Below, piece after piece: positions 21,301-64,000 of a DNA stretch of 64,000 bases. Origin of the DNA: Mobula hypostoma (taxonomy: Eukaryota). The translations under genes and the position numbers were made by a program. The DNA is taken from contig NC_086108.1 in NCBI RefSeq assembly GCF_963921235.1, positions 63,428,001 to 63,492,000 on the forward strand, in the 5' to 3' direction. The notes below the pieces were generated by a model, which was not told where the DNA came from, did not search any database, and saw only the letters and a program-made list of their open reading frames with translations. Every line of letters starts with the position of its first letter. The first letter of the stretch is position 1.

Positions 21301-22146
21301 ATCCGGCCTATAATTTCCTTTCTTCTGCCTCTCACCCTTCTTGAAGTGTCAGGTGATATTTGCAATTTTCCAGTCTTTTGGAACTATTGCAGAATCTGGT
21401 GATTCTTAATAGATCAGTGCTAATGCCGCCACAATCTCTTCAGACAGCTCTTTCAGAACCCTGGGCTGTGTACCATCTGGTTCAGCTGACTTACCTACCT
21501 TAAGACCTTTCAGTTTCCCAAGAACTTTCTGTGTAGTTATGGTAACTTCACACACTTCATGACCCCTGACACTTGGAACTTCCACCACACTGCTAGTGTC
21601 TTCCACATTGAAGGATGATGCAAAGTACTTAGCTCATCTGCCATTTCCTTGACCCCTTTACTACCTCTCTAGCATCGTTTTCCAGTGGTCCGATATCCAC
21701 TCTTGCCTCTCTTTTATATTTTATGTATATAAAGAAACTTTTGGAATCTTTAATATTATTGGCTAGCTTACTTTAGAATTCCAACTTTATCTTCTTAATG
21801 ACTTTTTATTTTCCTTCTCTTGGTATTTGAAAGCTTACCAGTCCTCCAACTTCCCACTAATTTTTGCTCTATTATATGCTCTCTCTTTGGCTTTGTCTTT
21901 ATCTTTACTTTAGCTTTGACTTATCTTATGAGCCACTGCTGTGTCATCATGCCTTTAGAATACTTCCTCTTTGGGATGTATTTCTCCTGTGCCTTCCGAA
22001 TTGCTTCCAGAAATTCCAGCCATTGCTGTTCTGCTGTCATCCCTGCCAGTGTTCTTTTCCATTTAATTCTTCTCAGCTTCTCTCTCATGCCTCCGTAATT
22101 CCCTTAACTCCACTGTAAAACTGATACATCTGACCTTAGCTTCTCA
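18344..22146 (-). mobile_element. Degenerate CR1 LINE, split by a Rex1-like insertion
   Basis: gaccataagacatagg tail at 18345. ORF2 fragments at 18598-18837, 20910-21122 and 21406-21606. Confidence 0.85.
18934..20553 (-). mobile_element. Rex1/Babar-like LINE, 5'-truncated
   Basis: ORFs contain [36 protein letters not shown] and WCQENNLSL. (aattg)n tail. Confidence 0.85.
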
Positions 22147-22645
22147 TGTTGAAATAATTGAACATGTTGAAATTATTTTAACACTTTCCACAACAGTATA
22201 GTTAAAATTACATAGAATTAACTGCGTAAGATGGTATTTCTTAACTTTGGCCCCAATATTGTATATTACCACATGTACAGAATTAATAGCTCAATCTTGA
22301 AGCAGGAAATTCGAGCCAAATAAATATCTGAAATAAAACATGAAATGTTGGAAACATTCATCAGGTCAAGCAGCATCTGTGGAGAGAGAAACAGAGATAA
22401 TCAGATCTGGGCATTTCTAGCATTTTATTTTAGAAAGCAAGTTAATTTGAATTCATTGAAACACTAGGAGAAAGATGGATCGGGCAAACGAAAAAGCACA
22501 GATTCAGTGAGGCCAGGGTGTAATTGAGGTTGATTTTTAATAAAGTTGTATAGTTAAAAGATTAATGAGTGCCATTTGAAAAAGAGAGAGGAAGAATAAA
22601 GGACCATATGAAAGTTGTGAAATGTAGATCACAGCTGCAGCTTTG

Positions 22646-23210
22646 TAAGTAGGATGCCGTGCACAATTCTTATTTGATGGAGACAGCCGTGAGAGCACAG
22701 AGGAACATCTGGATTAACTTCTGAAATGCCCGGTTTCGCTGCCGCTGCTGCTGTGCGATTCAGAATCTCTGGAGGGAAGGCCTCAAAATCCTCGGCTTTG
22801 CCTGCTGCTGGCGACCGGGACTAAGGTCAAAGCGTTCAGCAGAGATGGTGCTCAGTGCTCGGTGTTGGAGGGCTGGTCGGAGCTCAAAGTTTTCGGACGA
22901 CTCAGAGTCGGACTGTGGTCAGGTATGGCAGGGAGAGTTTTCTTCCTTCTCCCGTCTGCGTGAGATGTGGGACTTTAGAGAGACTTTGAACTTTTTGCCG
23001 TGCTCATGGCTTGTTCTTCGTCAAGTTACGGTATTGTTTGCACTGCTGTAACTATATGTTATAATTATGTGGTTTTTGTTAGTTTCTCAGTCTTGGTCTG
23101 TCCTGTGTTTCTGTGATATCACACCGGAGGAATATTGTATCATTTCTTAATGCATGCATTACTAAATGACAATAAAGGAGGACTGTGTGTCCTCATAATC
23201 TAATAATCTA
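22646..23210 (+). mobile_element. Unclassified non-coding retroposon-like insertion
   Basis: CpG-rich 5' part, AT-rich 3' part with aataaa and a (taatc)n tail. Possible TSD agcttt. Confidence 0.5.
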
Positions 23211-23299
23211 AAGCTTTACCTGAAATCAACTGAGAATGCTTGAAATGTGCACCACATCAGGCAGTGTGTCTGGAGAGAAAAGACTGAATTAATATTACA

Positions 23300-24845
23300 G
23301 ATCAAATTTCAAAGCTACTTATATGCCACCTTTATATAACCCTGAGATGTACTTTCTTGTGGCCATTCACAGAAAATATAAGAAACTCAGTAGAATCAGT
23401 GAAAGCTCACCCCCAACAGGATGGACAAACAATGAATATACAAAAGACAACAAATGGCACAAATGCAAAAGAAAAAAAAGTATGAAATATGGAGAACCTG
23501 AAATGAAAAGTCCTTGAAAGACAGTCCATTGGTTGTGGAAGCCATTCAGCGATGGGACAAGTGAAGTTATCCCCTCTGGTTCAAGAACCTGGTGGTTGAA
23601 GGGTACTAACTGTTTCTGAATCTGGTGGTGTGATCCTGAGGCTCCTGTACCACCTTCCTGATGACAGCAGTGAGAAGAAAGCATGGTTGCTGCTCCATGT
23701 AGATGTACTCTGTGGTGCTGAGAGCTTTACCCACATTGGACTGGGCAGTTTCCACTACTTTTTGTAGTTTTTTCATTCAAGAGCATTCGTGTTCCCAGAC
23801 CAGGCTGTGGTGCAACCAGTCAATATTCTCTCCACCACACATCTGTAGTTTGAAACAGCAGTTACATCTGAGCACGATGAAGGAAGTCTCCAGCCGGGAC
23901 TTGCATGACTAACTGTAGTGTAAATGACAGAAAGCTACTAACACGATGAAGGAAGCACTGAATACCACCAAAGGTGGAGGATCTTTATTGCTGCCCTAAA
24001 TTCCAGTAGCATTACAGGATGTATTATATATCTATAGAAATTTGTCAAAGTTTTAGATGACATGCCAAATCTTCGCAAACTTTTAAGAAAGTAGAGGTGC
24101 TGCCTTGCTTTCTTCATAATGACACTTGCTTGCTGGAACCAGGGCAAACCCTCTGAAATGATAACATTGAGAAATTTAAAGTTGCTGGCCCTCACCACCT
24201 CTGATTCCCCCCAGTGAGGACTGGTTCATGGACCTGTAGTTTCCTCCTCCTGAAGTCAATTGTCATTTTCTTCGTCTTGCTGACATTGAGTGAGAGGTTG
24301 TTGTTGTGGCACCACTCAGGCTGATTTTCAACTTATTTCCTATATGCTGATTCATTACCATCTTTGATTTGGCCAACAGCAGTGGTATCGTCAGCAAATT
24401 TAAATATGACATTCGAGCTGTACTTAGCTTCACAGTCATAATTATAACGTGAGCAGGGGGATAAGCACACAGCCTTGTGGTGCACTTCTGCTGATGGAAA
24501 CTCTGGAGGAGTTGTTGTTGATAACTCAAACTGACTGGCCTGCAAATGAAGAAACCTAGGATCCAGTTGCATAAGGAGGTATTGAGGCTAAGGTCTTGAA
24601 CTTTTGATGGATGATAGTATTGAATGCTGAACTTTAGTCAATGAAGAGCATCTGGATATATGCATCTTGGCTGTCCAGGTGTTTCAGAGTTGAGTGAAGA
24701 ACCAATGAAATAACATCTACTGTTAATCTGTTGTGATGGTTGACAAATTAGAGTCAATCCATTTCACTTCTTAGGCAGTTAATATGTATCATCATTAGCC
24801 TTTTAAAGAACTTCATCACAGTGGATGTAAGTGCTATTGGATGAC
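23300..24845 (-). mobile_element. Degenerate Rex1/Babar-like LINE, with a probable RTE 3' fragment inserted at about 23850-24022
   Basis: IFKFADDTTAVG and KKARQHLYFLKSLRRFG peptides on the minus strand. Confidence 0.75.
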
Positions 24846-24999
24846 CTTAAAACCTTACAGCAGAACTGCCTCATTCTGATACAGAGTCCTGAAGGTTGCA
24901 ACATGCCAAGACAGGGGTTGAGGTATTGTTCTTCAAGTTCACATTGGACCTATCTGGAACAGTCTCAGAGCCTATTATGTTTTTAGACTTGATTGTGAA

Positions 25000-27122
25000 A
25001 GTAGAAGTGTAGGCTCATGTAGGCACTGAATCTCAAGAGAGAGAATTTGTAGAATGTCTACGAGATGGCTTTTTAGAACAGATTGTTGCTGAGCCCACTA
25101 GGGGATCGGCTGTACTGGATTGGGTATTGCGTAAAGATCCAGAGGTGATTAGAGAGATTGCGGTGAAGGAACCCTTAGGAGGCAGTGATCAAAACATGTT
25201 TGAGTTCACTGTGAAATTTGAGAAAGAGAAGCCGAAATCCGATCTGTCGGTATTTCAGTGGAGTAAAGGAAATTACAGTGGCATGAGAGAGGAACTGGCC
25301 AAAGTTGACTGGAAAGGGACACTAGCGGGAAGGACGGCAAAGCAGCAGTGGCTGGAGTTTATGCGAGAAGTGAAGAAGGTGCAAGACAGATATATTCCAA
25401 AAAAGAAGGAATTTTCGAATGGAAAAAGGATGCAACCGTGGCTGACAGGAGAAGTCAAAGCCAAAGTAAAAGCAAAGGAGAGGGCATACAAGGAAGCAAA
25501 AATTAGTGGGAAGACAGGGGATTGGGAAGTTTTTAAAAACTTACAAAAGGAAACTAAGAAGGTCATTAAGAAGGTCCTCGTGTTCTGAAGGAGATAGCTG
25601 TGGAGATTGCGGAGGCATTAGCAATGATCTTTCAAAAGTCAGTAGATTCTGGCATGGTTCCGGAGGACTGGAAGATTGCAAATGTCACTCCGCTATTTAA
25701 GAAGGGGGCAAGGAAGCAAAAAGGAAATTATAGACCTGTTAGCTTGACATCGGTGGTTGGGAAGTTGTTGGAGTCGATTTTCAAGGATGAGATTACGGAA
25801 TACCTGGAGGCATATGACAAGATAGGCAGAGCTCAGCATGGTTTCCTTAAAGGAAAATCCTGCCTGACAAACCTATTGCAATTTTTTGACGAAATTACAA
25901 GTAGACGAGACAAGGGAGATGCAGTAGATGTTGTGTATTTGGGTTTTCAGAAGGCCTTTGAGAAGTTGCCGCACATAAACAAGATAAGAGCCCATGGAGT
26001 TTAGGAAAAGTTACATACGTGGATAGAGCATTGGGTGATTGGCAGGAAACAGAGAATGGGAATAAAGGGATCCCATTCTGGTTGGCTGCCGGTTACCAGT
26101 GGTGTTCCGCAGGGTCCGTGTTGGGGCCGCTTCTTTTTATGTTGTACATCAACGATTTGGATTATGGAGTAGATGGCTTTGTGGCTCAGTTTGCTGATGA
26201 TACAAAGATAGATGGAGGGGCTGACAGTGCTGAGGAAACGGAGTCTTCAGTGAGACTTGGATAGATTGGGAGAATGGGCAAAGAAATGGCAAATGGAATA
26301 CAATGTTGAAAATTCTATGGTCATTTACTTTGGTAAAAGAAATAAATCGGAAGACTATTATTTAAATGGGGAGAGAATTCAAAGTTCTGAGATGCAACGG
26401 GACTTGGGAGTCCTCGTGTAGGATACCCTTAAGGTTAACCTCCAGGTTGAGTCGCTGATGAAGAAGGCGAATGCAATTTTGGCATTCATTTCTAGAGGAA
26501 TAGAGTATTGGAGCACAGATGTGATGTTGAGGCTTTATAAGGCACTGTTAAGGCCTCACTTGGAGTACTGTGTGCAGTTTTGGGCTCCTTATTTAAGAAA
26601 GGATGGGCTGACTTTGGAAAGGGTTCAGAGAAGATTCACTACAATGATTCTGGGAATGAGAGGGTTAACATATGAGGAATGTTTGTCCGCTCTTGGACTG
26701 TACTCCTTGGAGTTTAGAAGAGTGAGGGGGGACCTCATAGAAACATTTCGAATGTTGAAAGGCATGGACAGAATGGATGTGGAAAAGTTGTTTCCCATGG
26801 TGGGGGAGTCTAGTACGAGAGGGCATGACTTAAGGATTGAAGGGCGCCCATTTAGAATAGAGATGCGAAGAAATTTTTTTAGCCAGAGGGTGGTAAATCT
26901 GTGGAATTTGTTGCCATGGACGGCAGTGGAGAACAAGTCATTGGGTGTATTTAAGGCAGAGATTGATAGGTATTTGAGTAGCCAGGGCATCAAAGGTTAT
27001 GGTGGGAAGGCAGGGGAGCGGGACTAAATGGGAGAATGGATCAGCTCATGATAAAATGGCAGAGCAGACTCGATGGGCCGAATGGCCGACTTCTGCTCCT
27101 TTGTCTTATGGTCTTATGGTCT
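25000..27122 (+). mobile_element. CR1 LINE (partial ORF2 with internal deletion, intact 3' tail)
   Basis: ORFs 25127-25588, 25600-26004 and 26458-27027. Tail (tcttatgg)n. Confidence 0.9.
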
Positions 27123-32092: not shown

Positions 32093-34029
32093 GGAGTCCG
32101 TAATGATGGATGCCGCCTTTTTGAAGCATTGCCATTTGAAGGTGTCTTGGATGCTGAGGAGGCTAGCACCCATGGTGAGACTGACTGAGCTTACAACTTT
32201 CTGCAGCTTTTTCCAGTCCTGTGCAGTGGCCTCTTCATACCAGTTAGAATGCTCTCCATGGTACATCTAGAGAAATTTACACGTTTCTTTGCTAACATGC
32301 CAATTCTCCTGAAACTCCTAATGAAATATAGCCACTGTCTGTTTCCTTTGTAATTGCATCAATATGTTGGGCCCAGGATAAATCCTGAAGAGATGTTGAC
32401 AGCCAGAAACTTGAAACTGTTCGCCCTTTCCACTTCTTATCCTTCAATGAGGATTGGTGTATGTTCCCTTGACTTCCCAATCCTGAAGTCCACAGTCAAT
32501 TCCTTGGTCTTACTGACGTATTGCTGTGACACCACTTAGCCAGCTGATCAATCTTGCTCCTGTATGTCTCCTCATCAGCATCAGAAATTCTGCCAACAAT
32601 AATAGTGTCACCAGCAAATTTATAGTTGGTATTTGAGCTGTGCCTAGCCACACAATTGTGGGTGTAGAAAGTCGAGCAGTGGACTAACCACACATCCTTG
32701 AGGTGTGCCAGTGTTGATTGTCAGCGAGGAGATGTTCTTTCCGATCTGCACAGATTGCATAAGTCAAGGATATAGTTGGGTTGGGTGGTACAGAGGCCCA
32801 GGTTTTAGATATTGTTGATTAGAACAGAGGGTATGATTGTGTTAAACGCTGAGCTTTATCCAATCAATAGTGGCCTGATGTAGATATTGCTATTGCCCAG
32901 GTGACCCACAGCTGAGTGGAGAGCCAGTGAGATTGTATCTGGGGCAAACCTATTGTGGCAATGGGAGAATTGCAGAGGGTCTAGGTCCTTGCTTAGGAAG
33001 GAATTGATTATAGCAATGACCAATCTCTCAAAGCCCTTCATCAAAGTAGATGTGAGTGCCACTGGGTGATAGTTGTTGAAGCAGCTCACCCTGTTCCTTC
33101 TTGGGCACTGGTATGATTGTTGCTCTTTTGAAGCAGTGAGAGATTAAAGTTGTCTTTGAAAACTGTCGCCAGTTGGTTGGCACAGGTTCTCAAAGCCCTA
33201 CCAGGTATACCATCAGAGCATGACACCTTGGAAGGGTTCACCCTCTTGAAATGTGTTCTAAAGTTGGCTCCTGAAACGTAGATCATAAGGTCACCAGATG
33301 TCTGTAGTTTCAATTTTTTTTGCCTTGTCATAATCCAATCACTACAATATTTCTTCTTGCACATATGCACCCATAAGCAAAAAGCACAACTAAAGAAGCC
33401 ATGTTCTCTGCATTTCTCATTCCTATATAACTTCCATGGTCAGGGAAAGCTCAAACTAGGCTGATCTCAATTGCTTTCTGCTTTATGTGGAAATGAGTAA
33501 GTCTCATAGCCTGCTGATAAATATTTAATTGCTCTGCATTCACATTTGTCCAAGCCTTTGACTTTAAAAGTTGTTTGTTGTCCAGCTGGACAGAATTGAA
33601 CATGTGTCAAGCAAACTAGCCATCAATTCACCCAACATTTAGAAAACTAGTTTCTAAAGCTAGTAGAATGGATTTGTTTCACAGAATGAAGAAGAGTTTG
33701 AAATTTGTTTAAATATATAGGAGGTACTGGATGAAAAGTTGGAGTTTAATTTATCTTTCATATGGGTTCTTAATGTTGAGGCATTGAATAAAACACAAAT
33801 TGTTTTATGTACACTCTGTGTGATTTTTATCCATTAACACCTTTTGTCAGTGAGATTATATTGAGCAAGCAATGTTTTTCTCACCCGGTTCCATTACCCT
33901 TAGAAACTAAAGGACATAATATCAAGATAAAACATTGGTTTTTTAGGACACAGATTAGGAGACTGTGCATCTCTGTCGTTCAGTATGACAGAGGGCTGTG
34001 GATTTTACGTTCAAGGTTATGATTGATCA

Positions 34030-35258
34030 GATATTAACAAATAGGGTGGACAAAGGGGAGGCAGTGGATGTTATTTAGTTGGCTTCTCAGAAGGCGTTTG
34101 ATAAGGTGTCACACATGAGACTGCTTAACAAGATAAAATCCTGTGGCATTACAGGAAAGGTACTGGCATGGATAGCAGAATGGCTGACCGGATGCAGGCA
34201 GCAAGTGGGAATAACTGGGGCCTTTTCTCGTTGTCTGCCAGTGACCAGTGGTGTTCCTCAGGGGTCTGTGTTGGGATTGCAGATTTTCACATCGTTTGAC
34301 AATGATTTGGAAAATGGAATTGAAGGCTTTGTGGCAAAGTTTGCGGATGATACAAAGATAGGTGCAGGGGTAGGTAGTGCTGAGGAAGCAATGTCATTGC
34401 ACTAGGACTGAGACTAATTGGAAAAATGGGCAAACAAGTGGCAGATGGAATACAGTGTTGGGAAATGTATGATAATACACTTTGGTCAAAGGAGCAACAA
34501 TGTGGACTATTATCTAAATGGGAAGAAGGTTCAAACATTAGAGGTGCGAAGAATCTTAGGAGTCTTCACGCAAGACTCCCAGAAGGTTAATTTACAGCTT
34601 GAGTTTGTGGTAAAGAAGGCAACTGGGGAATAGAAAATAAAAGCAAGAAGAATAGAATATAAAAGCAAGGAGATAATGTTGAGCCTTTATAAGGCACTAG
34701 TCAGGCCACACTTGTTCTATTGTCAACATTTTTATGCCCCATGGCTCAGAAAGGATGTGTTGTCATTGGAGAGAGTCCAGGGGAGGTTCAAGAGGATGAT
34801 TCTTGGAGTGAAGTATTTAATATATGAGGAGCGTTTGGCAGCTTTGGGCCTGTACTCACTGGAATTTAGAAGAATGCTGCGGGATCTCATTGAAACCTAC
34901 TGAATGTTGAAAGGACCAGTTAGGGTGAATGTGGAGAGAATGTTTCCTATGGTGGGGGTATCCAGAACTAGAGGGCACAGCCTCAAAATTGAGGAATGAC
35001 TCTTTAGAACAGAAGTAAGGAGGAATTGGTTTAGCCAGAGAATCTGTGGAGTGCTCTGCCACAGCCTGCCGTGGAGGCAAAGCTTGTACATATGTTTAAG
35101 GCAAAAGTTAATCGTTTCCTGATCAGTCAGGTCATCAAAGGATACGGCGAGAAGGCAATTGTATGGAGTTGAGTGGGATCTGGGGTCAACCATGATGGAA
35201 TGGTAGAGCAGACTCGATGGGCTGAATGACCTAATTCTGCTCCTATGTCTTATGGTCT
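34030..35258 (+). mobile_element. Degenerate CR1 3' portion
   Basis: ORF 34079-34405 ([13 protein letters not shown]). Tail tgtcttatggtct. Confidence 0.88.
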
Positions 35259-35503
35259 AAAAGGATCAAAACATTTGTAACTTTTCACCTGCTTTCAGTT
35301 TAGTTTGTTGCACCTTGCAGCTACTGATAAAGTCAATAGGTTTGATGGTTTTTTCACAACTTGCTGCTGACAGTACTGAAAATGAAATTGGCATGCGTGA
35401 TGCAGATCAATGGCGATTTAAACTGAAAAAATTGTGGAGTAAATAGCTAAGTTCCAAGCAAGACTTTTTCATAGTTTAAATTGTTCAATATTTTGTTTTA
35501 TAG

Positions 35504-35586
35504 AGAGAAGTTGCATGATGCTCAAGATGAGCTACAGAAAAAGAATGAGCTTATTAAAGAATTACAGCATAAAATACAGCAGAGAT
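35504..35586 (+). CDS. HOOK1: HOOK1 internal exon (EKLHDAQDELQKKNELIKELQHKIQQR)
   Basis: ttttgttttatag acceptor and gtaaaa donor, 83 bp. Phase-compatible with the next exon. Resembles EKLTEVHEELQKKQELIEDLQ. Confidence 0.9.
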
Positions 35587-35619
35587 GTAAAAGTATAAAC
35601 AGCACTATATTAGAGAGAT

Positions 35620-35918
35620 GTGTTGGCGCGTGGCCAAGTGGTTAAGGCGTTCATCTAGTGATCTGAAGGTCGCTAGTTCGAGCTTGGCTGAGGCAACATG
35701 TTGTGTCCTTGAGCAAGGCACTTAACCACACATTGCTCTGCGACGACACCGGTGCCAAGCTGTATAGGTCCTAATGTCCTTCCCTTGGACAACATTGGTG
35801 GCGTGTAGAGGGGAGACTTGCAGCCGGTCTTCCATACAACCTTGCCCAGGCCTGCGCCCTGGACACCTTCCAAGGTGCAAATCCATGGTCTCACGAGACT
35901 AATGGACGCCTTAAAAAA
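35620..35918 (+). mobile_element. tRNA-derived SINE with A-tail and 11-bp TSD
   Basis: A box tggccaagtgg, B box gttcgagc, central gtgtccttgagcaaggcacttaac. TSD attagagagat at 35609-35619 and 35919-35929. Confidence 0.9.
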
Positions 35919-36040
35919 ATTAGAGAGATCTAATCTTCCAAATAAATTGTCATAATATTAACAAGAGTAAGCAAACTATTGGAGTAATGGAACAAAATAA
36001 GGATTGATAACAATTGTGCAAAAAGGAAAGCAGATATGTC

Positions 36041-37876
36041 CATAAGATCATAAGACCATAAGACACTTCACTACTGACTCAACCTGGAGGTTAACTTTAA
36101 GGGTGTCCTGTACGAGGACTCCCAAGTCCCGTTGCATCTCAGAACTTTGAATTCTTTCCCCATTTAAATAATAGTCTGCCCGTTTATTTTTTCTGCCAAA
36201 GTGCATAACCATACACTTTCCAACATTATACTTCATTTGCCACTTCTCCGCCCATTCTTCCAATCTATCCAAGTCTCTCTGCAGAATCTCCATTTCCTCA
36301 GCACTACCAGCCCCTCCACCTATCTTCGTATCATCAGCAAACTAAGCCACAAAGCCATCTATTCCATAATTTAAATCGTTGATGTACAATGTAAAAAGAA
36401 GCGGCCCCAACACTGATCCCTGTGGAACACCACTGGTAACCGGCAGCCAACCAGAATAGGATCCCTTTATTCCCACTCTCTGTTTCCTGCCAATCAGCCA
36501 ACGCTCTATCCACGTATGTAACTTTCCCGTAATTCCATGGGCTCTTATCTTGTTAAGTAGCCTCATGTGTGGCACCTTGTCAAAGGCCTTCTGAAAATCC
36601 AAATATACAACATCTACTGCATCACCCTTGTCTAGCCTACTGGTAATTTCCTCAAAAAATTGTAATAGATTTGTCAGGCAGGATTTTCCTTTAAGGAATC
36701 CATGCTGAGTTCTGCCTATCTTGTCATATGCCTCCAGGTACTCTGTAACCTCATCCTTGACAATCGACTCCAACAACTTCCCAACCACCGATGTCAAGCT
36801 AACAGGTCTATAATTTCCTTTTTGCTTCCTTGCCCCCTTCTTAAATAGCGGAGTGACATTTGCAATCTTCCAGTCCTCCGGACCCATGCCAGAATCTATC
36901 GACTTTTGAAAGATCATCGCTAATGCCTCCGCAATCTCCACAGCTACTTCCTTCAGAACACGAGGGTGCATTCCATCTGGTCCAGGAGATTTATCTACAT
37001 TTGGCCTATTCAGCTTCCTGAGTACTTTCTCTGTCGTAATTGTGACTGCGCACATTTCTCTTCCCTGCCACCCTTGAGTGTCCGACATACTGCTGTCTTC
37101 CTCAGTGAAGACTGATGCAAAATACTTGTTCAGTTCCTCTGCCATCTCCTCATCTCCCATTACAATTACTCCAGCAACATTTTCTATCGGTCCTATATCT
37201 ACTCTCACCTGTCTTTTACTCTTTATATACTTGAAAAAGCTTTTAGTATCCTCTTTGATATTATTTGCTAGCTTCCTTTCATAGTTAATCTTTTCTCTCT
37301 TAATGACCTTCTTGGTTTCCTTTTGTAAGGTTTTAAAAACTTCCCAATCCTCTCTCTTCCCACTAATTTTTGCTTCCTTGTATGCCCTCTCTTTTGCTTT
37401 AACTTTGGCTTTGACTTCTCTTGTCAACCACGGTTGCATCCTTTTTCCACTCGAAAATTTCTTCTTTTTTGGAATATCCCTGTCTTGCACATTCCTCATT
37501 TCTCGCATAAACTCCAGCCACTGCTGCTCTGCTGTCTTTCCCGCCAGTGTCTCTTTCCAGTCAACTTTGGCCAGTTCCTCTCTCATGCCAGTGTAATTTC
37601 CTTTACTCCACTGAAATACCAACACATCAGATTTCGGCTTCTCTTTTTCTAATTTCACAGTGAATTCAATCATGTTATGATCACTGCATCCTAAGGGTTC
37701 CTTCACCTCAATCTCTCCAATCACCTCCGGTTCATTACACAATACCCAATCCAGTACAGCCAATCCCCTAGTGGGCTCAACAACAAGCTGTTCAAAAAAG
37801 CCATCTCGCAGACATTCTACAAATTCTCTCTCTTGAGATCCAGTGCCGACCTGATTTTCCCAATCTACTCGCATGT
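36041..37876 (-). mobile_element. CR1 LINE with 510-aa open ORF2 segment; 3' region deleted up to the tail
   Basis: ORFs 36342-37874 and 36048-36293. Same subfamily as 25000-27122. Confidence 0.9.
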
Positions 37877-37952
37877 CTTTGATTTTTCGCTAGGATTGGG
37901 AAGTGTTTTGTATGAGATCTGGAAAAGAAGGTGCAGAATAGAATAAAAACAC

Positions 37953-38514: not shown

Positions 38515-39334
38515 CTTAAGGCATTATAACACATGAACATGTTAAGAAAATGATCTTTCAAATAAATTGCCAAGTTAAGAGTGTAGTCTTTAAAATGAAT
38601 AAGCAGCAAACAGAAAATTAGTAAATCATTTGTGATAAAGGAAAACAATGAAAAGAAACATTAATGACAGGAAGAAAGGAAGAAATATGTTGGGATGCCA
38701 TGAAGTTGTGTAAGTTGCTATATAAAGTTCTCTCTTCTATTAAGGTGCTTTATCAGAATTACATGAAATAAATACATTTAAATTCATATTCACTGAGAGA
38801 TATGTTCCTACTACTTAAAAGTAAATTAGTTCTCTGAAGCATTCTGACCCATGCTTGGTCTTTATAAACTATTCAAATCCTCTGCATGTAGTATTCAATA
38901 GGAATTTAATGCACTTCATATAAAAACAATTTTTAGAATTCAAGTTGCTGTTCAACTTCCTTTCTTTCTTTCTTTCTTTCTTTTTAAATCTTTTTATTGA
39001 GTAAGTATACAAAAAAGGTAAGCCATATAAAGATTAATACAATGCTAAAGTATAATAAAATTCCAAAAGATATCAATACCAAAAAGAAATTACTACAAAC
39101 AATGTAATTTAAACATAAGAAACCAAGATAACATAATAGTATACTAAATTTTATATATATCAATGGAAAAAAAAGAAAAAAAAAAACCCCCCAAAAAAAA
39201 CCCACCATGCAGCTAACTAAAAGCAAAGCAAAGCAATGGGCTAACTTGAAACCAAACAGAGTTAAACTTAAAATCACGTCCTCAATCCCGACCTCCATTA
39301 AAAACAGTGAAAAAAAAAACAAGAAGGGTAAATA

Positions 39335-42300
39335 TTACATTAAATGAAAATATCGAATAAAAGGTCCCCAAATCTGTTCAAATTTAAATGAAGAATCATA
39401 AAGGTTACTTCTAATTTTCTCCAAATTCAAACATAAAATCGTCTGAGAAAACCAAAAAAAGGTAGTTGGAGCATTAAGCTCTTTCCAATGTTGTAAAATA
39501 CATCTTTTTGCCATTAAAGTAAGAAATGCAATCATTCTACGGGCTGAAGGGGAAAGATTACTAGAAATTTTAGGTAGTCCAAAGATAGCAGTAATAGGGT
39601 GAGGAGAGATATCTATATTTAATACCTTAGAAATAATATTGAAAATATCTCTCCAAAAAGTTTCCAAAGCAGGGCAAGACCAAAACATATGAGTTAAAGA
39701 GGCTATCTGCCCCGAACATCTATCACAGAAAGGATTAATATGCGAGTAAAAACGCGCTAACTTATCTTTGGACATATGTGCTCTATGAACCACTTTAAAT
39801 TGAATTAGGGAATGTTTAGCACAAATAGAGGAAGTATTAACTAATTGTAAAATCTGCCCCCAATCATCCACAGAAATGGTAAGCCCCAATTCCTGTTCCC
39901 AATCTACCCTAATCTTATCAAATGGAGCTTTCCTAAGTTTCATAATAATATTATAAATCATAGCCGATGCACCTTTCTGACATGGATTAAGGTTAATTAT
40001 CGAATCTAAAATATATGTAGGAGGAAGCATTGGAAAGGAAGAAAGTATAGTACTTAGGAAATTTCTAACTTGTAAATATCTAAAAAAATGTATTCTTGAT
40101 AAGTTATATTTATTAGATAATTGTTCAAAAGACATAAGGGAACCATCTAAAAATAAATCCAAAAACCGTAAAATACCCTTAGTCTTCCAAGTTTGAAAAG
40201 CGCGATCCGTAAAAGAGGGAGGAAAAAATATGTTACCTAAAATAGGAATCGCTAACCCGAATTGATTAAGATCAAAAAATTTTCTGAATTGAAACCAAAT
40301 GCGCAAAGCATATTTAACTATCAGGTTAGAGACCTGCTTAAGACGTTTCGAATCAAAAGGGAGAGAGGAGCCTAAAATAGAACCCAGTGTATAACCCTGA
40401 ACCGATTGTAATTCCAATGCTACCCATTTAGGAATAGATAGTATGTCCTGGTCAAGTAACCAAAATTTCATATGTCGAATATTAATAGCCCAATAATAAA
40501 ATCTAAAGTTAGGTAATGCTAAACCTCCATCTCTCTTAGCTTTCTGTAAATGTATTTTACCCAGTCTCGGATTCTTATTCTGCCAAATAAATGAAGAAAT
40601 TTTAGAGTCGACTTTATCAAAAAAAGATTTAGGAACGAAAATTGGTAATGCCTGAAACACATATAAAAATTTTGGCAAAAAAAACATCTTAACTGCATTA
40701 ATACGACCAATCAAAGTTAAATATAAAGGAAACCATTTAGATGAAAGTTGAGTAATATGGTCTATTAATGGTAAAAAGTTAGTCTTAAATAAATCTTTGT
40801 ATTTACAAGTAATTTTAATCCCAAGATATGAAAAGTAATTATTAATCAATTTAAATGGAAATTTATAATATAAGGGAAGATGTTTATTAATCGGAAAAAG
40901 TTCACTCTTACTAAGATTTAATTTATAACCTTTAATCTTGTCCACAATTACCATCTCCTCCTGCTTCTGTTTCTTCCTCAAAGCAACGGAATACGAAATA
41001 ATCTGACCCCGAATATAGGCTTTAAAAGTGTCCCAAAGAGTGTTAACCGAAATATCTTCTGTATGGTTAATTGTAAAAAAAAGCTCAATCTGTTCATTCA
41101 TAAAATTAACAAAGTCCGAGTCCTGAAGCAACAGCGAATTAAAACGCCATTGTCTATTGTTTGGTATATTGGCCATAATTTTAATAGAAAGCTTAAGTGG
41201 AGCATGATCCGAAATGGTTATAGAATCATAATCACATTTAATCACTGAAGGAATGAGACGAGAATCAATGAAAAAATAATCAATTCTTGAATAGGAATGA
41301 TGAACATGTGAAAAGAAGGAAAAATCTTTTTCCTGAGGATGCAGAAAACGCCAAATGTCCGTCGACCCAGAATCAGAAAGGAAAAAATTAATCAAATTTG
41401 CAGATTTATTAGGTAAAGTCCGTAAAGGAGCCGAACGGTAATATTTACCCTTCTTGTTTTTTTTTTCACTGTTTTTAATGGAGGTCGGGATTGAGGACGT
41501 GATTTTAAGTTTAACTCTGTTTGGTTTCAAGTTAGCCCATTGCTTTGCTTTGCTTTTAGTTAGTTGCACGGTGGGTTTTTTTTTTGGGGTTTTTTTTTTC
41601 TTTTTTTCCATTGATATATATAAAATCTAGTATACTATTATGTTATCTTGGTTTCTTATGCTTAAATTACATTGTTTGTAGTATTTTCTTTTTGGTATTG
41701 TTATCTTTTGGAATTTTATTATACTTTAACATTGTATTAATGTTTATATGGCTTACCTTTTTTGTATACTTACTCAATAAAAAGATTTAAAAAGAAAGAA
41801 AGATTTAATTTATAACCTGAGAAAAGACCAAATTGTGCTAATAACTCTAAAACAGCAGGAATGGATCTCTCAGGATTAGAGATATATAAAAGTAAATCAT
41901 CAGCATAGAGTGATAATTTATGGGACTTTAATCCCCGAGTTATCCCAGTAATATTTGAAGATTCTCGAATAGCAATTGCAAGAGGTTCTAATGCAATATC
42001 AAATAATAGGGGACTAAGAGGACAGCCTTGTCGAGTACCACGAAAGAGAGGAAAAAAAGGTGAGTTTAAAGAGTTAGTGCGAACCGAGGCTACAGGGGAG
42101 TGATATAACAGTTTAATCCAGGATATAAATCTCAAGCTAAAATTAAACATTTCAAGCACCTTAAATAAATAAGGCCATTCTACTCTATCAAAAGCTTTCT
42201 CGGCATCTAAAGAAATAACACACTCAGGAACATTTTGTGAGGGAGTATAAACGATATTTAACAATGTACGAATATTATAAAAAGAGTAACGACCTTTAAT

Positions 42301-43998
42301 AAAACCCGTTTGGTCCTCCGAAATAATAGAAGGAAGTACTTTTTCTAGTCTATTTGCTAATAACTTAGAAAAAACTTTAGAATCAACATTTAATAAAGAT
42401 ATTGGTCTATAAGATGCACATTGAGCAGGGTCTTTATCCTTCTTTAGTATTAGAGAAATTGATGCTCTATTAAAAGATTCAGGAAGTTTACCAAGTTTCA
42501 AAGAAGCCTCAAAAACCCTACCGAGCCAAGGAATCAATAAAGAAGCAAAACATTTATAAAATTCAACGGTAAACCCATCAGGGCCAGGAGCTTTCCCCAG
42601 ATTCATAGAAAAAATAACATTCTTAATCTCACCCATTGTAATGGAAGTATCTAATAAGGAAGACATATCCTGTGAAATCTGAGGGAAGTCTAACTTATCT
42701 AAAAAATCATTCATATATTTAGAATCTCGAGGAGACTCTGATTGATATAAAGAAGAATAAAAATCACAAAAGGTTTGATTAATCCCCACATGATCCAGTA
42801 TCAATCGATCATTTTGGTTATAAATCTGATTGATTTGAGATTTAACATAATTAGATTTCAATTGATTAGCCAGCAGCTTGCCAATTTTGTCACTGTGAAC
42901 ATAAAAGTCACTTCTTGTTTTCTTTAATTGGTTTACAATCGAGGACGAGAGTAGTAAACTGTGTTCCATTTGAAGTTCAGTTCTTTGTTTATATAACTCC
43001 TCAGAAGGAGCCATAACATATTTCTTATCAATTTCTTTAATCTTGTCCACAATTACCATCTCCTCCTGCTTCTGTTTCTTCCTCAAAGCAACAGAATACG
43101 AAATAATCTGACCCCGAATATAGGCTTTAAAAGTGTCCCAAAGAGTGTTAACCGAAATATCTTCTGTATGGTTAATTGTAAAAAAAAGCTCAATCTGTTC
43201 ATTCATAAAATTAACAAAGTCCGAGTCCTGAAGCAACAGCGAATTAAAACGCCATTGTCTATTATTCGGTATATTGGCCATAATTTTAATAGAAAGCTCA
43301 AGTGGAGCATGATCCGAAATGGTTATAGAATCATAATCACATTTAATCACTGAAGGAATAAGACGAGAATCAATGAAAAAATAATCAATTCTTGAATAGG
43401 AATGATGAACATGTGAAAAGAAGGAAAAATCTTTTTCCTGAGGATGCAGAAAACGCCAAATGTCCGTCGACCCAGAATCAGAAAGGAAAAAATTAATCAG
43501 ATTTGCAGATTTATTAGGTAAAGTCCGTAAAGGAGCCGAACGGTCCGAAGCTGGAGACAAACAGGTATTAAGATCTCCGCCCCAGATCAATGAAAACTCG
43601 TTCAAATTCGGAAACTGATCAAACAATGATTTATAAAATTCCGGACAATCCATATTAGGAGCATAAACATTAACCAAAACTACTTTTTTATTAAATAGTA
43701 AACCACTAACCAATAAAAATCTACCATTCGGATCAGAAATAATATCCTGTTGTATAAAAGTAACTGAGGAATCTATAAAAATAGAGACGCCTCGAATCTT
43801 AGCATTGGAGTTCGAATGAAATTGTTGACCCTTCCAGAATTTGAAAAAACGTAGTCTGTCCCCCCTCCGTACATGGGTCTCTTGTAAAAATAAAATTTGT
43901 GCTTTAAGTCTCCGGAACACTTTAAAAACTTTTTTCCTTTTAATAGGATGATTAAGACCATTAGTATTCCAGGAGACAAAATTAATAATAGACTCCAT
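39335..43998 (-). pseudogene. L1 ORF2 (APE endonuclease, RT, CCHC knuckle), interrupted only by an 887-bp nested insertion
   Basis: SWNTNGL, LQETH, GDLN, SRID, SDH, QGCPLSP, YADD and CDRC..H....C motifs. Removing 887 bp leaves 3777 nt in frame (1258 aa). Confidence 0.92.
40932..41799. mobile_element. Nested 5'-inverted L1 copy of the same family
   Basis: TSD aagatttaatttataacct at 40913-40931 and 41800-41818. Minus-strand ORF2 piece at 40931-41439. Plus-strand 3' UTR and tail at 41438-41799. Confidence 0.9.
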
Positions 43999-44717
43999 AA
44001 ATCCTAAAGTCAACCCACAACAAGGAGGATTGACGATAGGCGCGACCCACAAACCCGGAGAGGAAACAGAACATACAAAAGATACCGGGAAAAAGGACGC
44101 AACCAGTACTTCAATAATGTATATAGCCCAAAGAGAAACAAACTAAAACGTGAAGCCCCTCCCACCACCCCCCACCCCAAGACCCCAGGGCAAAATCTAA
44201 AGCAGACCCGCCAGAAAGAAGCAAGCGCTAAAACTACCCCCGTGACTTCCGGTATACGCTCCCTAAAAAAAAAGGTATAAATATGAAAAAGGATCAGCTA
44301 ATTGTAAAACAGTAAAAAAGTAAAAAAAAGGTAGCTCAATTAAAATACACACAGAACAGAACAAAAGCCGGAAAATATATATTAAAAAAAAACCACAATA
44401 AACCTCAAACCCATGAATAGACACAGCAACAAGAAACAATAAGATTATTGACATAAAGTGGTTATAAAAAGCAAAACAGAATAAAATTTAAAAAAAACTA
44501 CAAAATTTAAGGCCACACAGGAAATACGTAAGATGACAAAAGGGAAGTAACCACCCAGAATCCCCTGGGAAAAGAAAGAAATGACGCAGTTAAAAAGAAA
44601 GTTTAGCAACCATATTAAGAAATCAAAAGTAAACTTTTCTGCCCAAATAGGGCACGAAAAAGTTAAAACCAACCAATTCACAGCCTCCGATCAACGGAGA
44701 TAATTAAAAAAAAGCAA

Positions 44718-45372
44718 TTAAGATGTTGAAGATGAAAGTTGATCCAGATAACTCTGGGCATCCGATGGAGAATCAAAAAAACGAAGGGCTCCATCTGACA
44801 TGCGAATCCTTAGACGTGCAGGGTACAGCAGCGCTGGTCTTAAATCCATCTTATAGAATTCCGACATCACGGATCTGTAACGAACCCGTTGGTCCCAGAT
44901 TGGTTTACTGAAATCTTCCACGAATCGGAACCTAAGATCCGAAAAATCAATGAAACCTTTAGATCGAGCGAATCGAAACAGTCTCTCCTTGTCTTGAAAA
45001 TAATGAAAACGTAAAATAACATGCCTAGGTCTATCTGACCTAGACGAATATGATGGGATTCTGTGAACATGATCCAGTAGCGGTGGTTGGTCAGGAAATA
45101 CAGTAGGGAATGCATCTTTTAAAAGTTGAGAAAAATATTTCATGGGATTGTTGGATTCCACGGCTTCCCTCACCCCTATCATTCGTAAATTCTGCCGTCG
45201 CATTCTAGATTCCAAGTCAGAGTTTTTAAAAGTCAAAAAGTCAAGTTTCTTCTTCATTACATTAATTGTTTCTTCGATTTTCCCCATCTTAAGCTCACTT
45301 TGTTGCGCGAATTTTTGAAGATCAGATATAGCCGACTGATGTTCCGCAATACATGTTTGCATCTTATCAATT
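44718..45372 (-). pseudogene. L1 ORF1 (Transposase_22-like), 5'-truncated
   Basis: Coiled coil followed by DLESRMRRQNLRMIGV, PRHVILRF and LLYPARL. Confidence 0.9.
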
Positions 45373-45555
45373 AAGTTGCTGTTCAACTTCCTATTGCATG
45401 ATGCTTGTATAATTTATTTCATAAAACATGAAAATATAATGACCCTTTACTAATAATTTAATGTAACAGAAATCAGACTTGTATCATTTGCCCTCAAATG
45501 CAATTAAATTTTATTGCAATTAAACAAGTTTAAATTGCAAATCTTATCATTCTAG

Positions 45556-45656
45556 CTCAAAGTAGTGAGGAATTGCAACGTGGGTTAACTAAAAAAGATG
45601 AAGATATGCGGGCAATGGAGGAAAGGTACAAAATGTACCTCGAGAAAGCTCGTAAT
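45556..45656 (+). CDS. HOOK1: HOOK1 internal exon (QSSEELQRGLTKKDEDMRAMEERYKMYLEKARN)
   Basis: tctag acceptor and gtgagt donor. Contains the hallmark KKDEDM.AMEERYKMYLEKARN. Confidence 0.96.
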
Positions 45657-48698: not shown

Positions 48699-51304
48699 TA
48701 CAGGAACCATGGGCTGTTGAGAATCTAGTCAAGAAGAAAAGAAAAGCTTATGAAAGTTTCAAAAAACTAGGTAATGATAGAGATCTAGAAAATTCATAAG
48801 GCAAGCAGGAAGGAGCTTAAGAATGAAATTAGGACAGCCAGAAGGGGCCAATGGAGACCTTGGCGAGCAGGATTAGGGAAATCACCAAGGCATTCTATAA
48901 GTATGTGAAGAGCAAGAGGATAAGGTGTGAGAGAATAGGACCAATCAAGTGTGACAGTGGAAAAGTGTGTAACGAACCGGAATAGATAGCGGAGGAATTT
49001 AATGAATACTTTGCTTCAGTATTCATTACAGAAAAGGATCTTGGCGATTGTAGGGACGACTTACAGGAGACTGAAAAGCTCGAGCTTATAGACATTAAGA
49101 AAGAGGATGTGCTGGAGCTTTTGGAAAGCATCAAGTTGGATAAGTCACTGGGACCAGAGGAGATATACCCCAGGCTACTGGGGGAGGCAAGGGAGGAGAT
49201 TGCTGAGCCTCTGGCAATGATCTTTGCATCATCAATAGGGACAGGAGAGGTTCCTGAGGATTGGAGGGTTGCAGATGTTGTTCCCTTATTCAAGAAAGGG
49301 AATAGAGATAGTCCAGGAAATTATAGACCAGTGAGTCTTACTTCAGTGGTTAGTAAGTTGATGGAGAAGATCTTGAGAGGCAGGATTTATGAATATTTGG
49401 AGAGGCATAATATGATTAGGAATAGTCAGCATGGCTTTGTCAAGGGCAGGTCATGCCTTACGAGCCTGATTGATTTTTTTGAGGATGTGACTAAACGCAT
49501 TAAAGAAGGTAGAGCAGTAGATGTAGTGTATATGGATTTCAGCAAAGCATTTGGTAAGGTACCTTATGCAAGGCTTATTGAGAAAGTAAGAAGGCATGGG
49601 ATCCAGGGGGACATTGCTTTGTGGCTCCAGAACTGGCTTGCCCACAGAAGGCAAAGAGTGGTTGTAGACAGGTCATATTCTGCATGGAGGTCGGTCACCA
49701 GTGGTGTGCCTCAGGGATCTGTTCCGGGACCCCTTCTCTTCGTGATTTTTATAAATGACTTGGATGAGGAATTGGAGAGATGGGTTAGTAAATTTGCTGA
49801 TGACACAAAGGTTGGGGGTGTTATGGATAGTGTGGAGGGCTGTCAGAGGTTACAGCGGGATATCGATAGGATACAAAACCTGGCTGAGCAGTGGCAGATG
49901 GAGCTCAATCCAGAAAAGTGTGAGATAATTCATTTTGGTAGGTCAAATATGATGGCAGAATATCGTATTAATGGTAAGACTCTTGGCAGTGTGGAGGATC
50001 GGAGGGATCTTGGGGTCCGAGTCCATAGGACACTTGAAGCTGCTGCGCTGGTTGAATGTGTGGTTAAGAAAGCATGTGGTGCATTGGCCTTCATCAATCG
50101 TGGGATTGAGTTCAAGAGCCGAGAGGTAATGTTACAGCTATATGGGACCCTATTCAGACCCCACTTGGAGAACTGTGCTCAGTTGTGGTCACCTCACTAC
50201 AGGAAGGATGTGGAAACTATAGAAAGGATGCAGAGGAGATCTACAAGAATGTTGTCTGGATTGGGGAGCATGCCTTATGAGGATAGGTTGAGTGAACTTG
50301 GCCATTTCTCCTTAAACTGACGGAGGATGAGAGTTGACCTGATAGAGGTGTATAAGATGATGAGAGGCATTGATCATGTGTATCGTCAGAGGCTTTTTCC
50401 CAGGGCTAAAATGGGTAACATGAGAGGGCACAGTTGTAAGGTACTTGGAAGTTTGTACAGAGGAGATGTCACGTGTAAGTTTTGTTACGTGGAGAGTGGT
50501 GAGAGCGTGGAATGGGCTGCTGGTGACAGTGGTGTAGGCGGATACAATAGGGTCTCTTAAGAGACTGCTGGATAGGTACATGGAATTAGAAAAATAGAGG
50601 GCTATGGGTAACCCTAGGTAATTTCAAAAGTAACTACACGTTCGACACAACATTGTGGGCCGAAGGGCCTGTATTGTGCTGTCGGTTTTCTATGTTTCCA
50701 TATCAAAATGTCCAAAGACATTGCTGAGTACATATTTGGGCTATGGCCTTCAGCTGCCTCTAAGTTTTCTAAGTATATTTCTCAGCTCCTCTGCAAATGA
50801 ATCATTGGACAAAGTATTGTTTTTCTACCGTAGAAGAGAAGAAGTAATGATTGCCACCCCTCACTCATCCAACTGGGTTAAACATCTGGACTCTCATCTT
50901 TAGCAGCAGATGGGCACTGTAAATGAGTCCACGATGGTATAGACTTCTATTGCCATGACTAAAATGAATTAGTAACCCCTAACTGTATGGACTTTGTCAT
51001 GGACAATTGCAGGAATTAGTTGTATAGCAGGCCCTTGGATAACAACAGAGTAAGTCTGAATGAAGTCTGGAATAATCTTTAATTTGAAAGATGAAGAACA
51101 TTAGAAGCCATAGTGATATTTTGGGATGAATATATTCTACTTTATGGAAAGAGTAGATATCTGTCACAGTGCAATTTCCTAAGCTGTCTCTGGGGGCTGA
51201 GAGCCTTTTCTACCAACAGTAAGCATCAGAAAATGCTACATTGTCTCTTCATTTTTAAAAAATATATATTTAGGACAAAGTTCATCAGCAGATTCTTGCT
51301 GAAA

Positions 51305-54012: not shown

Positions 54013-56035
54013 AACGACTTGGAATCTATCGAATATGTACAGAATGTGTCTACATTAAAAAAGCTCAAGAGTAGAAAGAAAAATTATGATATACATCAGT
54101 GTTTAGTAATTCTGCTCCTTCTAAGAATAGATTTCCTTTCTAACGGAAATGATTACCTTTAACGTGTAAAGAATTGCTTTTCTTTTTGAATATAGTAGCA
54201 CAAAGCGGTAAGGGCTAAAGATGGGGGAGAAAAAGCATTTTCCTAAGATTTAAACGTATGTAAAATTGGTATATATCATATTTTAAAATAGGTGACAATG
54301 TAATCATAAGTTCAAAGTTCATCTGTTCTGTATAACAAATTTTCACATGTTTTAATTTTTTATTAAGAGAATTGCACTTATTGAGATCATATGAAGCTTA
54401 ATTATAAATTCTAAATCTTGTTTCTATAGTAACATTTAAAATGCCTGAGGTTTTATTAGTTTCATATTTTCATTTTTACTTCAGAAAATAATAATTTAAA
54501 CTTGACTGATTATTATTGTTGAGTCTTTACTGAAGTTGATTATTCCATTAATCTGAGTAGACTGCAATTAAGGGATTGCTCAATATTTGTGTTTGTATTA
54601 TATCAATATAACTGAATAGTTTTTGTAATTTTTGATATATAATGGGTGTTAAAATTGATGAACAGATTGCATAGATCTCAAACAAATAAGTAATATATTA
54701 TTTAAACTTACTTATCTGTGAAATTTGTTCATATTGGATGCTTACAAGAAGCAACAAATAATCCTGGATTGAAAAATTTGATTCATTTTTTTTCTGAATT
54801 GGACTCGGAGTACTTACCTATTCTTTTATCTCTGGTATTTTAAGAGATTTTAAGAGAAAACAATGGACAATGTGGATACTTTCTATATTTGCATGTAATG
54901 AAATTTTAAATTACTCTTCTTTCAAACTTAATGGTGTCTGTAGCCAAAATAATGTGGTTGTTGTTTTGTTATTCAATTGCCAGTAGAAGGTCATTTTGAG
55001 ATATTTAATTTATACTGGGGCAAAATAGAAGTATGAATTGGTAATAATGACATTGCATATACCTACAAAAATTATATATATTTTTGTTTGATTTGAGCAA
55101 CGTTGTACAACAATTCTTGACTTGCTTTTGCATTATTATCGATACCCTGACTCCAGAACTAAGTTTCTGAGTCTAAAATATGGCTCGGTTACAGATCTGG
55201 GTGGTTCATCCTGAAACATGCATATAGTTTGTGATATTGCACTAAGTATTACAAGCAACATGTTATAAAAGGTGATTAACATGGGTGGATCTATTTTATG
55301 ATCCAGTGTGTCCAATTTTAGTTTTCAAGAAAAATAACTTGATGAGCTGCATAGAGATGGGGAAGGTAACAATTAAGTTGTTGTCTACAGGCAGGTCCAT
55401 CTTTTAAATCAAATCAAATTCAATTTAATAATTATTCAACCATAGATGAATACAGCAAAAAGAAAATGAGGCTGCTTGCCTCAGAGTTAACCTTTGTTTA
55501 ACAAACAGTTCCTAAGGCTCAAGTTTCTTGAGCAATGGGCAACATGGTAACTGAACAAAAACACAAATGACCAAACCAGTCGGGGAAGTTGATATACTTG
55601 TTCTTAAAGAAGACAAACTTAGCATGGGTAAAAACGCCAGCTTATTTTTTTCTCAACTGTGTTCAGCACTCCAGACCAACCGTGTGCATGTCAGCACCTC
55701 ACCCATGTCCCTTTTGGTCCTGACTGACCCACGGGCATTGCACACTGTGAACTGAAATTCTTTATTATGTATGCACGTAGTAACAAAAACGTGTTTGGAA
55801 TGAAAGGAGTAATCATGCTTCACTTCACACTAAGCAAATCCAGGTCAGCTAGGAGCAGACTGATGTGGAACATCATGCAGCAAAAGAATCAGCAGCCAGA
55901 CTTGAGTAGGAGTTGAGTTGGACATCGGCATGGGTTTATTATTGTTGTATATTGAGATATGGTTAAAAGCTTTTATTTTGCATTTGATCCAAACAGATAA
56001 TGAAATGCATAATTACAATGAGGCAGTTAAAATTG

Positions 56036-56953
56036 GTTGTGAGAAACTATAGAAAGGTTGCAGAGGAGATTTACAAGGATGTTGCCTGGAGTGGGGGGCA
56101 TGTCTTATGAGAATAGGTTGAGTGAACTTGGCCATTTCTCCTTAGAGTGACGGAGGATGAGAGATGACCCGATAAAGCTATATAAGATGGTACTTTATAC
56201 TTTATTGTCGCCAAACAATTGATATTAGAACGTACAATCATCACAGCGATATTTGTTCTGGCGCTTCCTGCTCCTGGATTACAAATATTAAATATTAAAA
56301 GTAGTAAAAATTAGTAAATATCAAAATTTTAAATTGTAAATCATAAATAGAAATAGAAAAATGGAAAGTAAGGTCGTGCAAAAAAACCGAGAGGCAGGTC
56401 CGGATATTTAGAAGGTATGGCCCAAGTGATGAGAGACATTGATCATGTGTATAGTCAGAGGCTTTTTCCCAGGGCTGAAATGGCTAACATGAGAGGGCAC
56501 TGTTTTAAGGTGCTTGGAAGTAGGTACAGAGGAGATGTCAGGGGTAAGTTTTTTATGCAGAGAGTGGTGAGTGCGTGGAATGGGCTGCCGGTGAAGGTGG
56601 TTTAGGCGGATACAACAGGGTCTTTTAAGAGATTCCTGGATAGGTACATGGAGCTTAGAAAAATAGAGTGCTATGTAATTTCTAAAGTAAGTACATGTTT
56701 GGCACAGCACCGTGGGCCGAAGGACCTGTATTGTGCTGCAGGTATTCTATGTTTCTATATCAAAATCTCCAAAGACATTGCTGAGTACATATTTGGGCTG
56801 TGACCTCCAGCTGCCCCTAAATTTTCTAAATATATTTTTCAGCTTCTCTGCAAATGAATCATTGGACAAAGTATTGTTTTTCCATCAAAGAGACTAAGGC
56901 ACAGCATTGTGGGCCGAAGGGCCTGTATTGTGTTGTAGGGTTTCTATATTCCT
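56036..56953 (+). repeat. Duplicate of the CR1 3' end plus unique flank from about 50207-50826, with a later insertion (about 56190-56426) and an extra CR1 tail (56897-56953)
   Basis: About 125 bp of post-tail flank is shared (9 differences by eye), along with distinctive CR1 variants. Confidence 0.85.
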
Positions 56954-63490: not shown

Positions 63491-64000
63491 GATCTTGAAA
63501 ATCGATCGAGAAGACAAAACTTACGTCTTATTGGTCTACCCGAGGATGTTGAGGATGGAGACCCTTTGATATTCTTTGCTCAACGTTTAAAGGATACGTT
63601 CAGTTCAGTTTTTCCCAACGAGCCTCCATTACTTGACCGTGCGCACCGTATACCGCGGCCAAAGTCAGCATCGGCTGTATCCAAACCGAGACCAATTATT
63701 CTTCGTTTCCATTATGTTAATGTTAAAGAACAGCTTCTCCAGATTGCTCCTCGGCAAGGGATGATCAATTATCGCCAACATTCCTTCAGGATAGTTCAAG
63801 ATTACAGTCCCGAAGTGATGAAAGAGCGACTGACTTTTAAACCTCTGATGTCGGAATGTTATCAAAAAAATCTCAAACCGGCATTATTGTACCCTGCATG
63901 TCCAAGAATTTCTCTTCCTGATGGATCTCGTCGCATTTTCCATTCCATAACCGCCGCTCGAGGGTTTTTGGAAGATAACTACCCATCTGATACGGACACC
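63491..64000 (+). mobile_element. Second L1 family: ORF1 C-terminal part, open to the window edge, in CYP2 intron 2
   Basis: Manual translation gives DLENRSRRQNLRLIGLPE...LDRAHR...PRPIILRF...KPALLYPA with no stop. It is absent from the ORF track. Confidence 0.9.

Follow-up and report, generated by a model that had tools for sequence, protein, structure and literature searches.

A 5′-inverted, most likely twin-primed L1 insertion nested within a copy of its own family

Results

The window analysed here, a stretch of 64 kb, contains on its minus strand an L1 copy (38962-45372; hereafter the host L1), within which lies a second, smaller insertion (40913-41818). The host L1 is framed by a 20-bp target site duplication (TSD), the copy on its 3′ side (38942-38961) being identical to that on its 5′ side (45373-45392; nicked strand ...TTCCT/AT). 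Between these, all on the minus strand, lie a 3′UTR (38962-39334) that carries AATAAA and an (AAAG)5 tail (38962-38985), an ORF2 (39335-43998) of 1,258 codons, which is open when the insert is set aside and comprises APE endonuclease, RT and a zinc-knuckle region, and an ORF1 remnant of 218 codons (44718-45372) that is truncated at the TSD and matches Pfam Transposase_22 (E 4.7e-10). The insert breaks ORF2 at about codon 727, 30 codons past the YADD motif. We took as diagnostic of the L1 clade an ORF2 of about 1,250-1,280 aa with APE endonuclease, RT and a C-terminal Cys-rich region, accompanied by a Transposase_22-type ORF1. ORF2 contains the Pfam domains Exo_endo_phos and RVT_1, with zf-RVT at 26.8 bits, below the cut-off of 27.5, and its best solved match is human L1 ORF2p (467 bits, against 87 bits for R2). 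Together with its length and the ORF1 domain, these features support assignment of the element to the L1 clade, as the preliminary description had proposed.

That description also held that the insertion had inactivated a sibling. The promoter of L1 elements lies in the 5′UTR, and the host L1 has no such promoter because its own TSD abuts ORF1: the first in-frame ATG of the remnant follows the TSD after 10 nt, which leaves no space for a 5′UTR. The 218 codons compare with lengths of 204, 216 and 290-324 aa in the four L1 ORF1 clusters of the Atlas that were listed. Judging from this arrangement, the host L1 was very probably 5′-truncated and dead before the insertion, so the proposed inactivation is not supported, though an open ORF2 was indeed broken.

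Downstream of the L1 pair lies an exon of a HOOK-family gene (45556-45656, plus strand), which is bounded by AG...GT, matches Pfam HOOK (E 4.4e-10, profile positions 388-417 of 514) and resembles Hook3 chains. The two L1 copies would thus sit in the intron upstream of this exon. The host L1 is antisense to the gene, and the insert brings a sense AATAAA (41776-41781) into the intron; premature polyadenylation of the HOOK-family gene at this signal is a possible, candidate effect.

Other repeats are present in the window. A second L1 family is represented by an ORF1 fragment (63491-63973, plus strand) that is 48% identical to the host ORF1 and reaches the window end, and nearby a segment on the minus strand (63275-63295) resembles the host L1 target site at 20 of 21 positions (E 0.002 in the window), which may reflect an old repeat or chance. 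A near-perfect palindrome (16475-16656), consisting of two 90-nt arms that are 96% identical and separated by 2 nt, belongs to a dispersed SINE-like repeat with further copies at 47408 and 51296. Decayed copies of other LINE families occupy 8700-15800, 20500-27100, 34000-37900, 48700-50900 and 56000-56900; their RT similarity to the host ORF2 is 22-30%, and some pairs are about 90% identical to each other.

The insert had been described as a TSD, an inverted ORF2 piece, a sense 3′UTR with an (AAAG)n tail and a second TSD. The assembled sequence confirms this order: a 19-bp TSD, an inverted ORF2 piece of 510 nt (piece A), a sense 3′UTR of 366 nt with a short (AAAG)n tail (piece B) and the TSD again. 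The duplicated sequence, AAGATTTAATTTATAACCT, occurs exactly at 40913-40931 and 41800-41818, with a spacing of 887 bp, and cannot be extended on either side; a given 19-mer is expected by chance at about 1e-10 per position. Both insertions have an endonuclease-type nick site of pyrimidines followed by a purine, ATCTT/AG for the insert (nicked strand, at the downstream TSD copy) and TTCCT/AT for the host L1, a loose match.

Piece A (40930-41439, minus strand; element coordinates 1829-2338) corresponds to ORF2 codons ~151-321. The preliminary description counted about six substitutions between it and the host, and the count stands: 504 of 510 nucleotides are identical, gaplessly, to the homologous host segment (43035-43544, minus strand), the six differences (98.8% identity) all being transitions. 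The start had been placed one nucleotide too far in, and falls at 40930/43035 once the microhomology is included. Piece A keeps the orientation of the host and so forms a direct repeat with its homologous segment 2.1 kb away. Piece B (41438-41803, plus strand) is homologous to the host 3′UTR, matching host 39338-38971 in reverse complement at 355 of 368 positions (96.5%). The claimed (AAAG)n tail (41789-41803) is present, though short, consisting of AAAAAG and about two AAAG units against five in the host. Piece B begins (41438-41442) a single nucleotide ahead of the stop codon of ORF2, perhaps by chance. An open frame of 763 codons (39335-41626, minus strand) spans both junctions and joins the antisense 3′UTR, piece A and the C-terminal part of ORF2 in frame; this chimeric frame is probably fortuitous, as it lacks the YADD motif.

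The two 2-nt microhomologies that had been noted are also found, CT at the junction of the TSD with piece A (the last 2 nt of the upstream TSD copy) and GT at that of piece A with piece B. A 2-nt microhomology is expected at 18% of random junctions, and at both junctions together in about 3%, which makes these matches weak evidence for twin priming. A third short overlap, AAGA, is common to the insert tail and the first 4 nt of the downstream TSD copy. Piece A lies 5′ of piece B on the RNA, the 3′-most end of piece A is at the upstream TSD, and the two pieces are joined by their 5′ ends, which is the geometry of twin priming. With piece A ending at element coordinate 2338 and piece B starting at 5148, 2,809 nt of the element are skipped, in agreement with the earlier estimate of about 2.8 kb.

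The differences between piece A and the host indicate where the piece came from. Five are synonymous and one is a replacement (pS 4.7% versus pN 0.25%; Fisher p = 0.002), and the excess of synonymous changes persists against a neutral expectation of transitions only (p = 0.017). Because five of six differences are synonymous, the source would be a sibling lineage and not local DNA or a local mis-assembly, consistent with the earlier proposal of a same-family source. Outside a homopolymer block, 8 of 326 sites (2.5%) distinguish piece B from the host UTR, a value compatible with the pS of piece A (p = 0.32), so that on these divergences both pieces can derive from one active sibling lineage, about 2.5-5% diverged at neutral sites. 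The lone replacement, E/K, falls in a column that varies among the homologues (132 of 149 aligned).

These substitutions bear on a reading in which the upstream end of the break was extended by DNA-templated repair. In that case 510 nt would have been copied onto the upstream end, either from the host itself, 1.2 kb away, or from a sibling locus, before a 5′-truncated cDNA of 366 nt was attached to it. Piece A does run parallel to the host segment at a distance of 2.1 kb, and locally templated additions are known from human L1 insertions, with 3 cases in the portion of PMC11702581 available and 22 templated insertions in that of bioRxiv 2024.08.27.596794. However, changes acquired after copying from the host should be neutral, yet five of six are synonymous (p 0.017 or 0.002); moreover, neither TSD pair shows a mismatch, and the host ORF2 has kept its open frame. 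For an ectopic sibling as donor, homology-driven invasion would be expected to begin at the homologous site instead of 1.2 kb from it. We consider DNA-templated repair unlikely.

Read contigs were mapped on 39339-43034 in 4 of 23 runs (X1 and X2, which are from one sample that may be the source of the assembly, X5 and X17), with 19,987 contigs in X1. The family is very abundant, the summed X1 contig depth over 39339-43034 being 1.7e5-9.1e5, whereas many single contigs have a depth of about 10-30; this measure is not a copy number. Amid these swamping family copies, no junction-spanning contig was found among the matches listed (15 of 22 joints and 32 of 43,365 pieces). Joints that skip ~887 bp are present in the contigs; these are expected from any sibling copy and do not demonstrate an empty allele at this locus. 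Loose ends at 40930 and 41439 correspond to the normal continuation of the family in the 24 of 1,803 rows that were listed. A separate SINE consisting only of the 3′UTR was considered as the origin of piece B and rejected, as the summed depth over piece B is not above that over the adjoining ORF2 end, a weak indication. At least 5 host positions are contradicted by at least 97% of the X1 depth among the 40 of 128 variant rows listed, 2 of them synonymous and 3 replacements, and host-private decay is at least 0.2%; the six sites at which piece A differs are not among the same 40 of 128 rows.

The abundance of the family and the lack of a junction-spanning record among those listed speak for an assembly artefact in a high-copy repeat. 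An assembler could not generate an exact 19-bp TSD together with a tail and a nick-site motif, neither piece, with 6 and at least 8 substitutions respectively, duplicates its neighbour, and the window contains no N; we therefore regard an artefact as very unlikely.

Close relatives that could serve as siblings at the DNA level were sought in several ways. No further copy of the host L1 family was found within the 64-kb window, and a metagenome scan for close family copies yielded only 12 loci with 24-45% protein identity, none of them usable as a DNA sibling. A protein search with the ORF1 remnant gave 0 matches, while protein searches otherwise gave 22 distant long proteins and representatives with up to 71% identity over a fragment, none of which is a DNA sibling. 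The named protein matches are amphibian, at 28-37% identity. Taken with the microsatellite tail and the presence of several distant LINE families in the window, these low values point to a probable non-mammalian origin.

The skipped stretch had been called much longer than is usual in mammals. It is rare and far above the median, but lies within the human range. According to the available text of bioRxiv 2024.08.27.596794, the median internal deletion in human is 14.5 bp, and the accessible part of PMC12016303 places the arms within 20 bp of each other in 46% of 287 human inversions. In our own count of PMC12016303 Table S12, the gap is at least 1 kb in 17 of 287 rows and at least 2 kb in 7 of 287, which amount to 5 distinct breakpoint sets, two somatic rows carrying inconsistent flags, with a maximum of 4,201. 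One of the cases in that table, G_9048, has an inverted arm of 540 nt, a sense arm of 745 nt and a gap of 2,606 nt. The 2.8-kb gap is thus rare, with human precedent, and ranks with the largest ~2% of human gaps.

Two further readings account for the gap without a long skip. In the first, the insert derives secondarily from an older parent, twin-primed or rearranged in some other way, that had a long inverted arm and whose read-through transcript was trans-mobilised and 5′-truncated in the ordinary way, the gap reflecting truncation of the arm. The abundance of the family means that such parents could exist, and the unit has its own AATAAA. Against this, two rare steps are needed (promoterless transcription and trans-mobilisation), the parent itself requires 5′ inversion in the same family, comparable gaps arise directly in about 2% of human inversions, and the loose ends at 40930/41439 are normal family continuation in the 24 of 1,803 rows listed, a weak counter-argument; this course of events seems improbable. 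The second reading is twin priming with a short gap on an RNA that already lacked its middle, from a spliced or internally deleted element. This would bring the priming points close together, like most human cases (the 46% within 20 bp, as given in the available part of PMC12016303). The gap ends, however, have neither a GT start nor an AG end, and no AG occurs in the 30 nt before piece B; we regard a pre-deleted or spliced template as highly improbable. SpIRE-like splicing as the cause of the gap was rejected on the absence of GT...AG at the deletion ends.

Discussion

The insert is most likely a well-formed 5′-inverted L1 insertion that was twin-primed. We put the probability of a single L1 integration resolved by twin priming, in the broad sense that allows for one RNA or two, at about 0.74. 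The twin-priming model reportedly goes back to Ostertag and Kazazian in 2001, and nested L1 copies in zebrafish are said to have been described by Ichiyanagi and Okada in 2006.

On this model the insertion would have proceeded in four steps. First, ORF2p would have nicked the bottom strand at ATCTT/AG, a site that is present in the ORF2 of the resident 5′-truncated sibling, antisense to it. The nicked end would then have annealed to AAGA in the (AAAG)n tail and been extended by reverse transcription over 366 nt, as far as the ORF2 stop codon, as the observed structure of piece B suggests. The top strand, cut 19 nt away, would have primed a second cDNA internally through CT, extending 510 nt towards the 5′ end of the RNA; the polarity of piece A is observed and agrees with such priming. 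Finally, by analogy with the human model, the two cDNA ends would have been joined at GT, with the loss of 2,809 nt, and fill-in would have yielded the TSD. The template RNA would stem from a sibling with a neutral-site divergence of about 2.5-5%, and copying from one molecule would be indistinguishable from copying from two. As the insert has neither a promoter nor an RT, it is a dead fossil of the integration pathway.

Several points count against twin priming. The evidence consists of one insertion only, no junction-spanning contig appears among the matches listed, the gap far exceeds the human median, each microhomology by itself is unremarkable, and human L1 gave no 5′ inversion in chicken DT40 cells (PMC4245944). 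In addition, the RNA offered the second primer a site of perfect complementarity over 19 nt, at the position homologous to the target, which was bypassed. Because the insert is antisense to its sibling, the top-strand overhang would be fully complementary to the incoming RNA at this site (element ~3536-3555), which falls inside the skipped stretch; the antisense strand of the element contains a single match to the final 6-8 nt of the TSD, at the target site itself. It may be that second priming is not directed to the best match, or else that a hybrid formed there led to RNA cleavage and to priming on the 5′ fragment. The latter alternative belongs to a wider proposal, that twin priming is old and general in the LINE integration of jawed vertebrates and that antisense self-nesting provides a special route, which we consider doubtful. 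Along that route the 19-nt overhang would hybridise at ~3536-3555, RNase H would cut the RNA, nucleases would trim it and priming would occur 1.2 kb upstream on the freed 5′ fragment, resulting in a long skip. A skip this large would include a random position about half the time. If the self-nesting route were true, antisense insertions into the same family should be inverted more often, with gaps that span the homologous position of the target. RNA pairing that would draw the priming sites together gave no pair above random in a comparison of 4 pairs with random pairs.

For the twin-primed insertion that we favour, the mechanism is already known, the gap and the nesting stay within known ranges, and the lineage is apparently new, represented by one case. 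So far 5′ inversion has been described almost only for mammalian L1. Treatments of twin priming in the available portions of PMC4476161, PMC13174262, PMC11702581, PMC11484939 and PMC6895275 concern mammals or mention it incidentally; in the accessible text of PMC5389967, PMC6007223 and PMC11371274 the topic terms occur in the reference list only, and priming is not mentioned in bioRxiv 2026.06.26.733778. A full-text literature search, from which most subscription papers and key zebrafish studies were out of reach, found no report of genomic 5′-inverted L1 in fishes. A case as clear as this one, from a distant L1 lineage whose tail is a microsatellite, suggests that neither poly(A) nor a mammalian host is required. 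Were a genome-wide count to bear this out, twin priming would go back to the early jawed vertebrates, and single insertions in genomes of this kind would be split in two by repeat annotation; one dead insertion alone changes little.

Human twin-primed L1 insertions, as presented in the available parts of PMC2912911, PMC12016303, PMC11702581 and bioRxiv 2024.08.27.596794, provide the closest parallel, sharing the order of TSD, inverted arm, sense arm, tail and TSD, the polarity and an internal deletion. The TSD of 19 bp here (mostly 10-20 in human), the 2-nt microhomologies and the arm lengths near human medians are likewise similar, and in the excerpted text of PMC2912911 microhomology of 2-5 nt is given for about 70% of human 5′-inverted L1. 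In contrast, the L1 lineage here is distant and apparently non-mammalian and has a short (AAAG)n tail where the human element has poly(A), and the target belongs to the same family and lies in antisense, which gives the second primer full complementarity to another part of the RNA. Two-template chimeras (antisense U5/U1/U2-L1, 5S/tRNA-L1 and mRNA-L1), according to the available parts of PMC4476161, PMC13174262 and PMC11702581, also involve a second DNA end that primes on a distant or separate RNA and pieces of opposite orientation within one TSD, and inserts of opposite orientation from two RNAs are described in the last of these; both pieces here, however, are L1, which leaves one RNA and two RNAs indistinguishable.

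Outside mammals, the comparison is with the cell-culture assays of PMC4245944, the available text of which reports that human L1 was inverted in human cells, with none in chicken DT40 cells and none for ZfL2-1, while one 5′-inverted insert of zebrafish Nimb-2_DR was obtained in DT40 cells. Its conclusion is that 5′ inversion depends on host and element alike, and the absence of human L1 inversion in DT40 implies that the pathway is not automatic outside mammals. The Nimb-2_DR insert resembles the present one in combining a non-mammalian LINE, a non-mammalian host and a 5′ inversion; it differs, as far as that text goes, in being one event, from a different clade, in an engineered assay.
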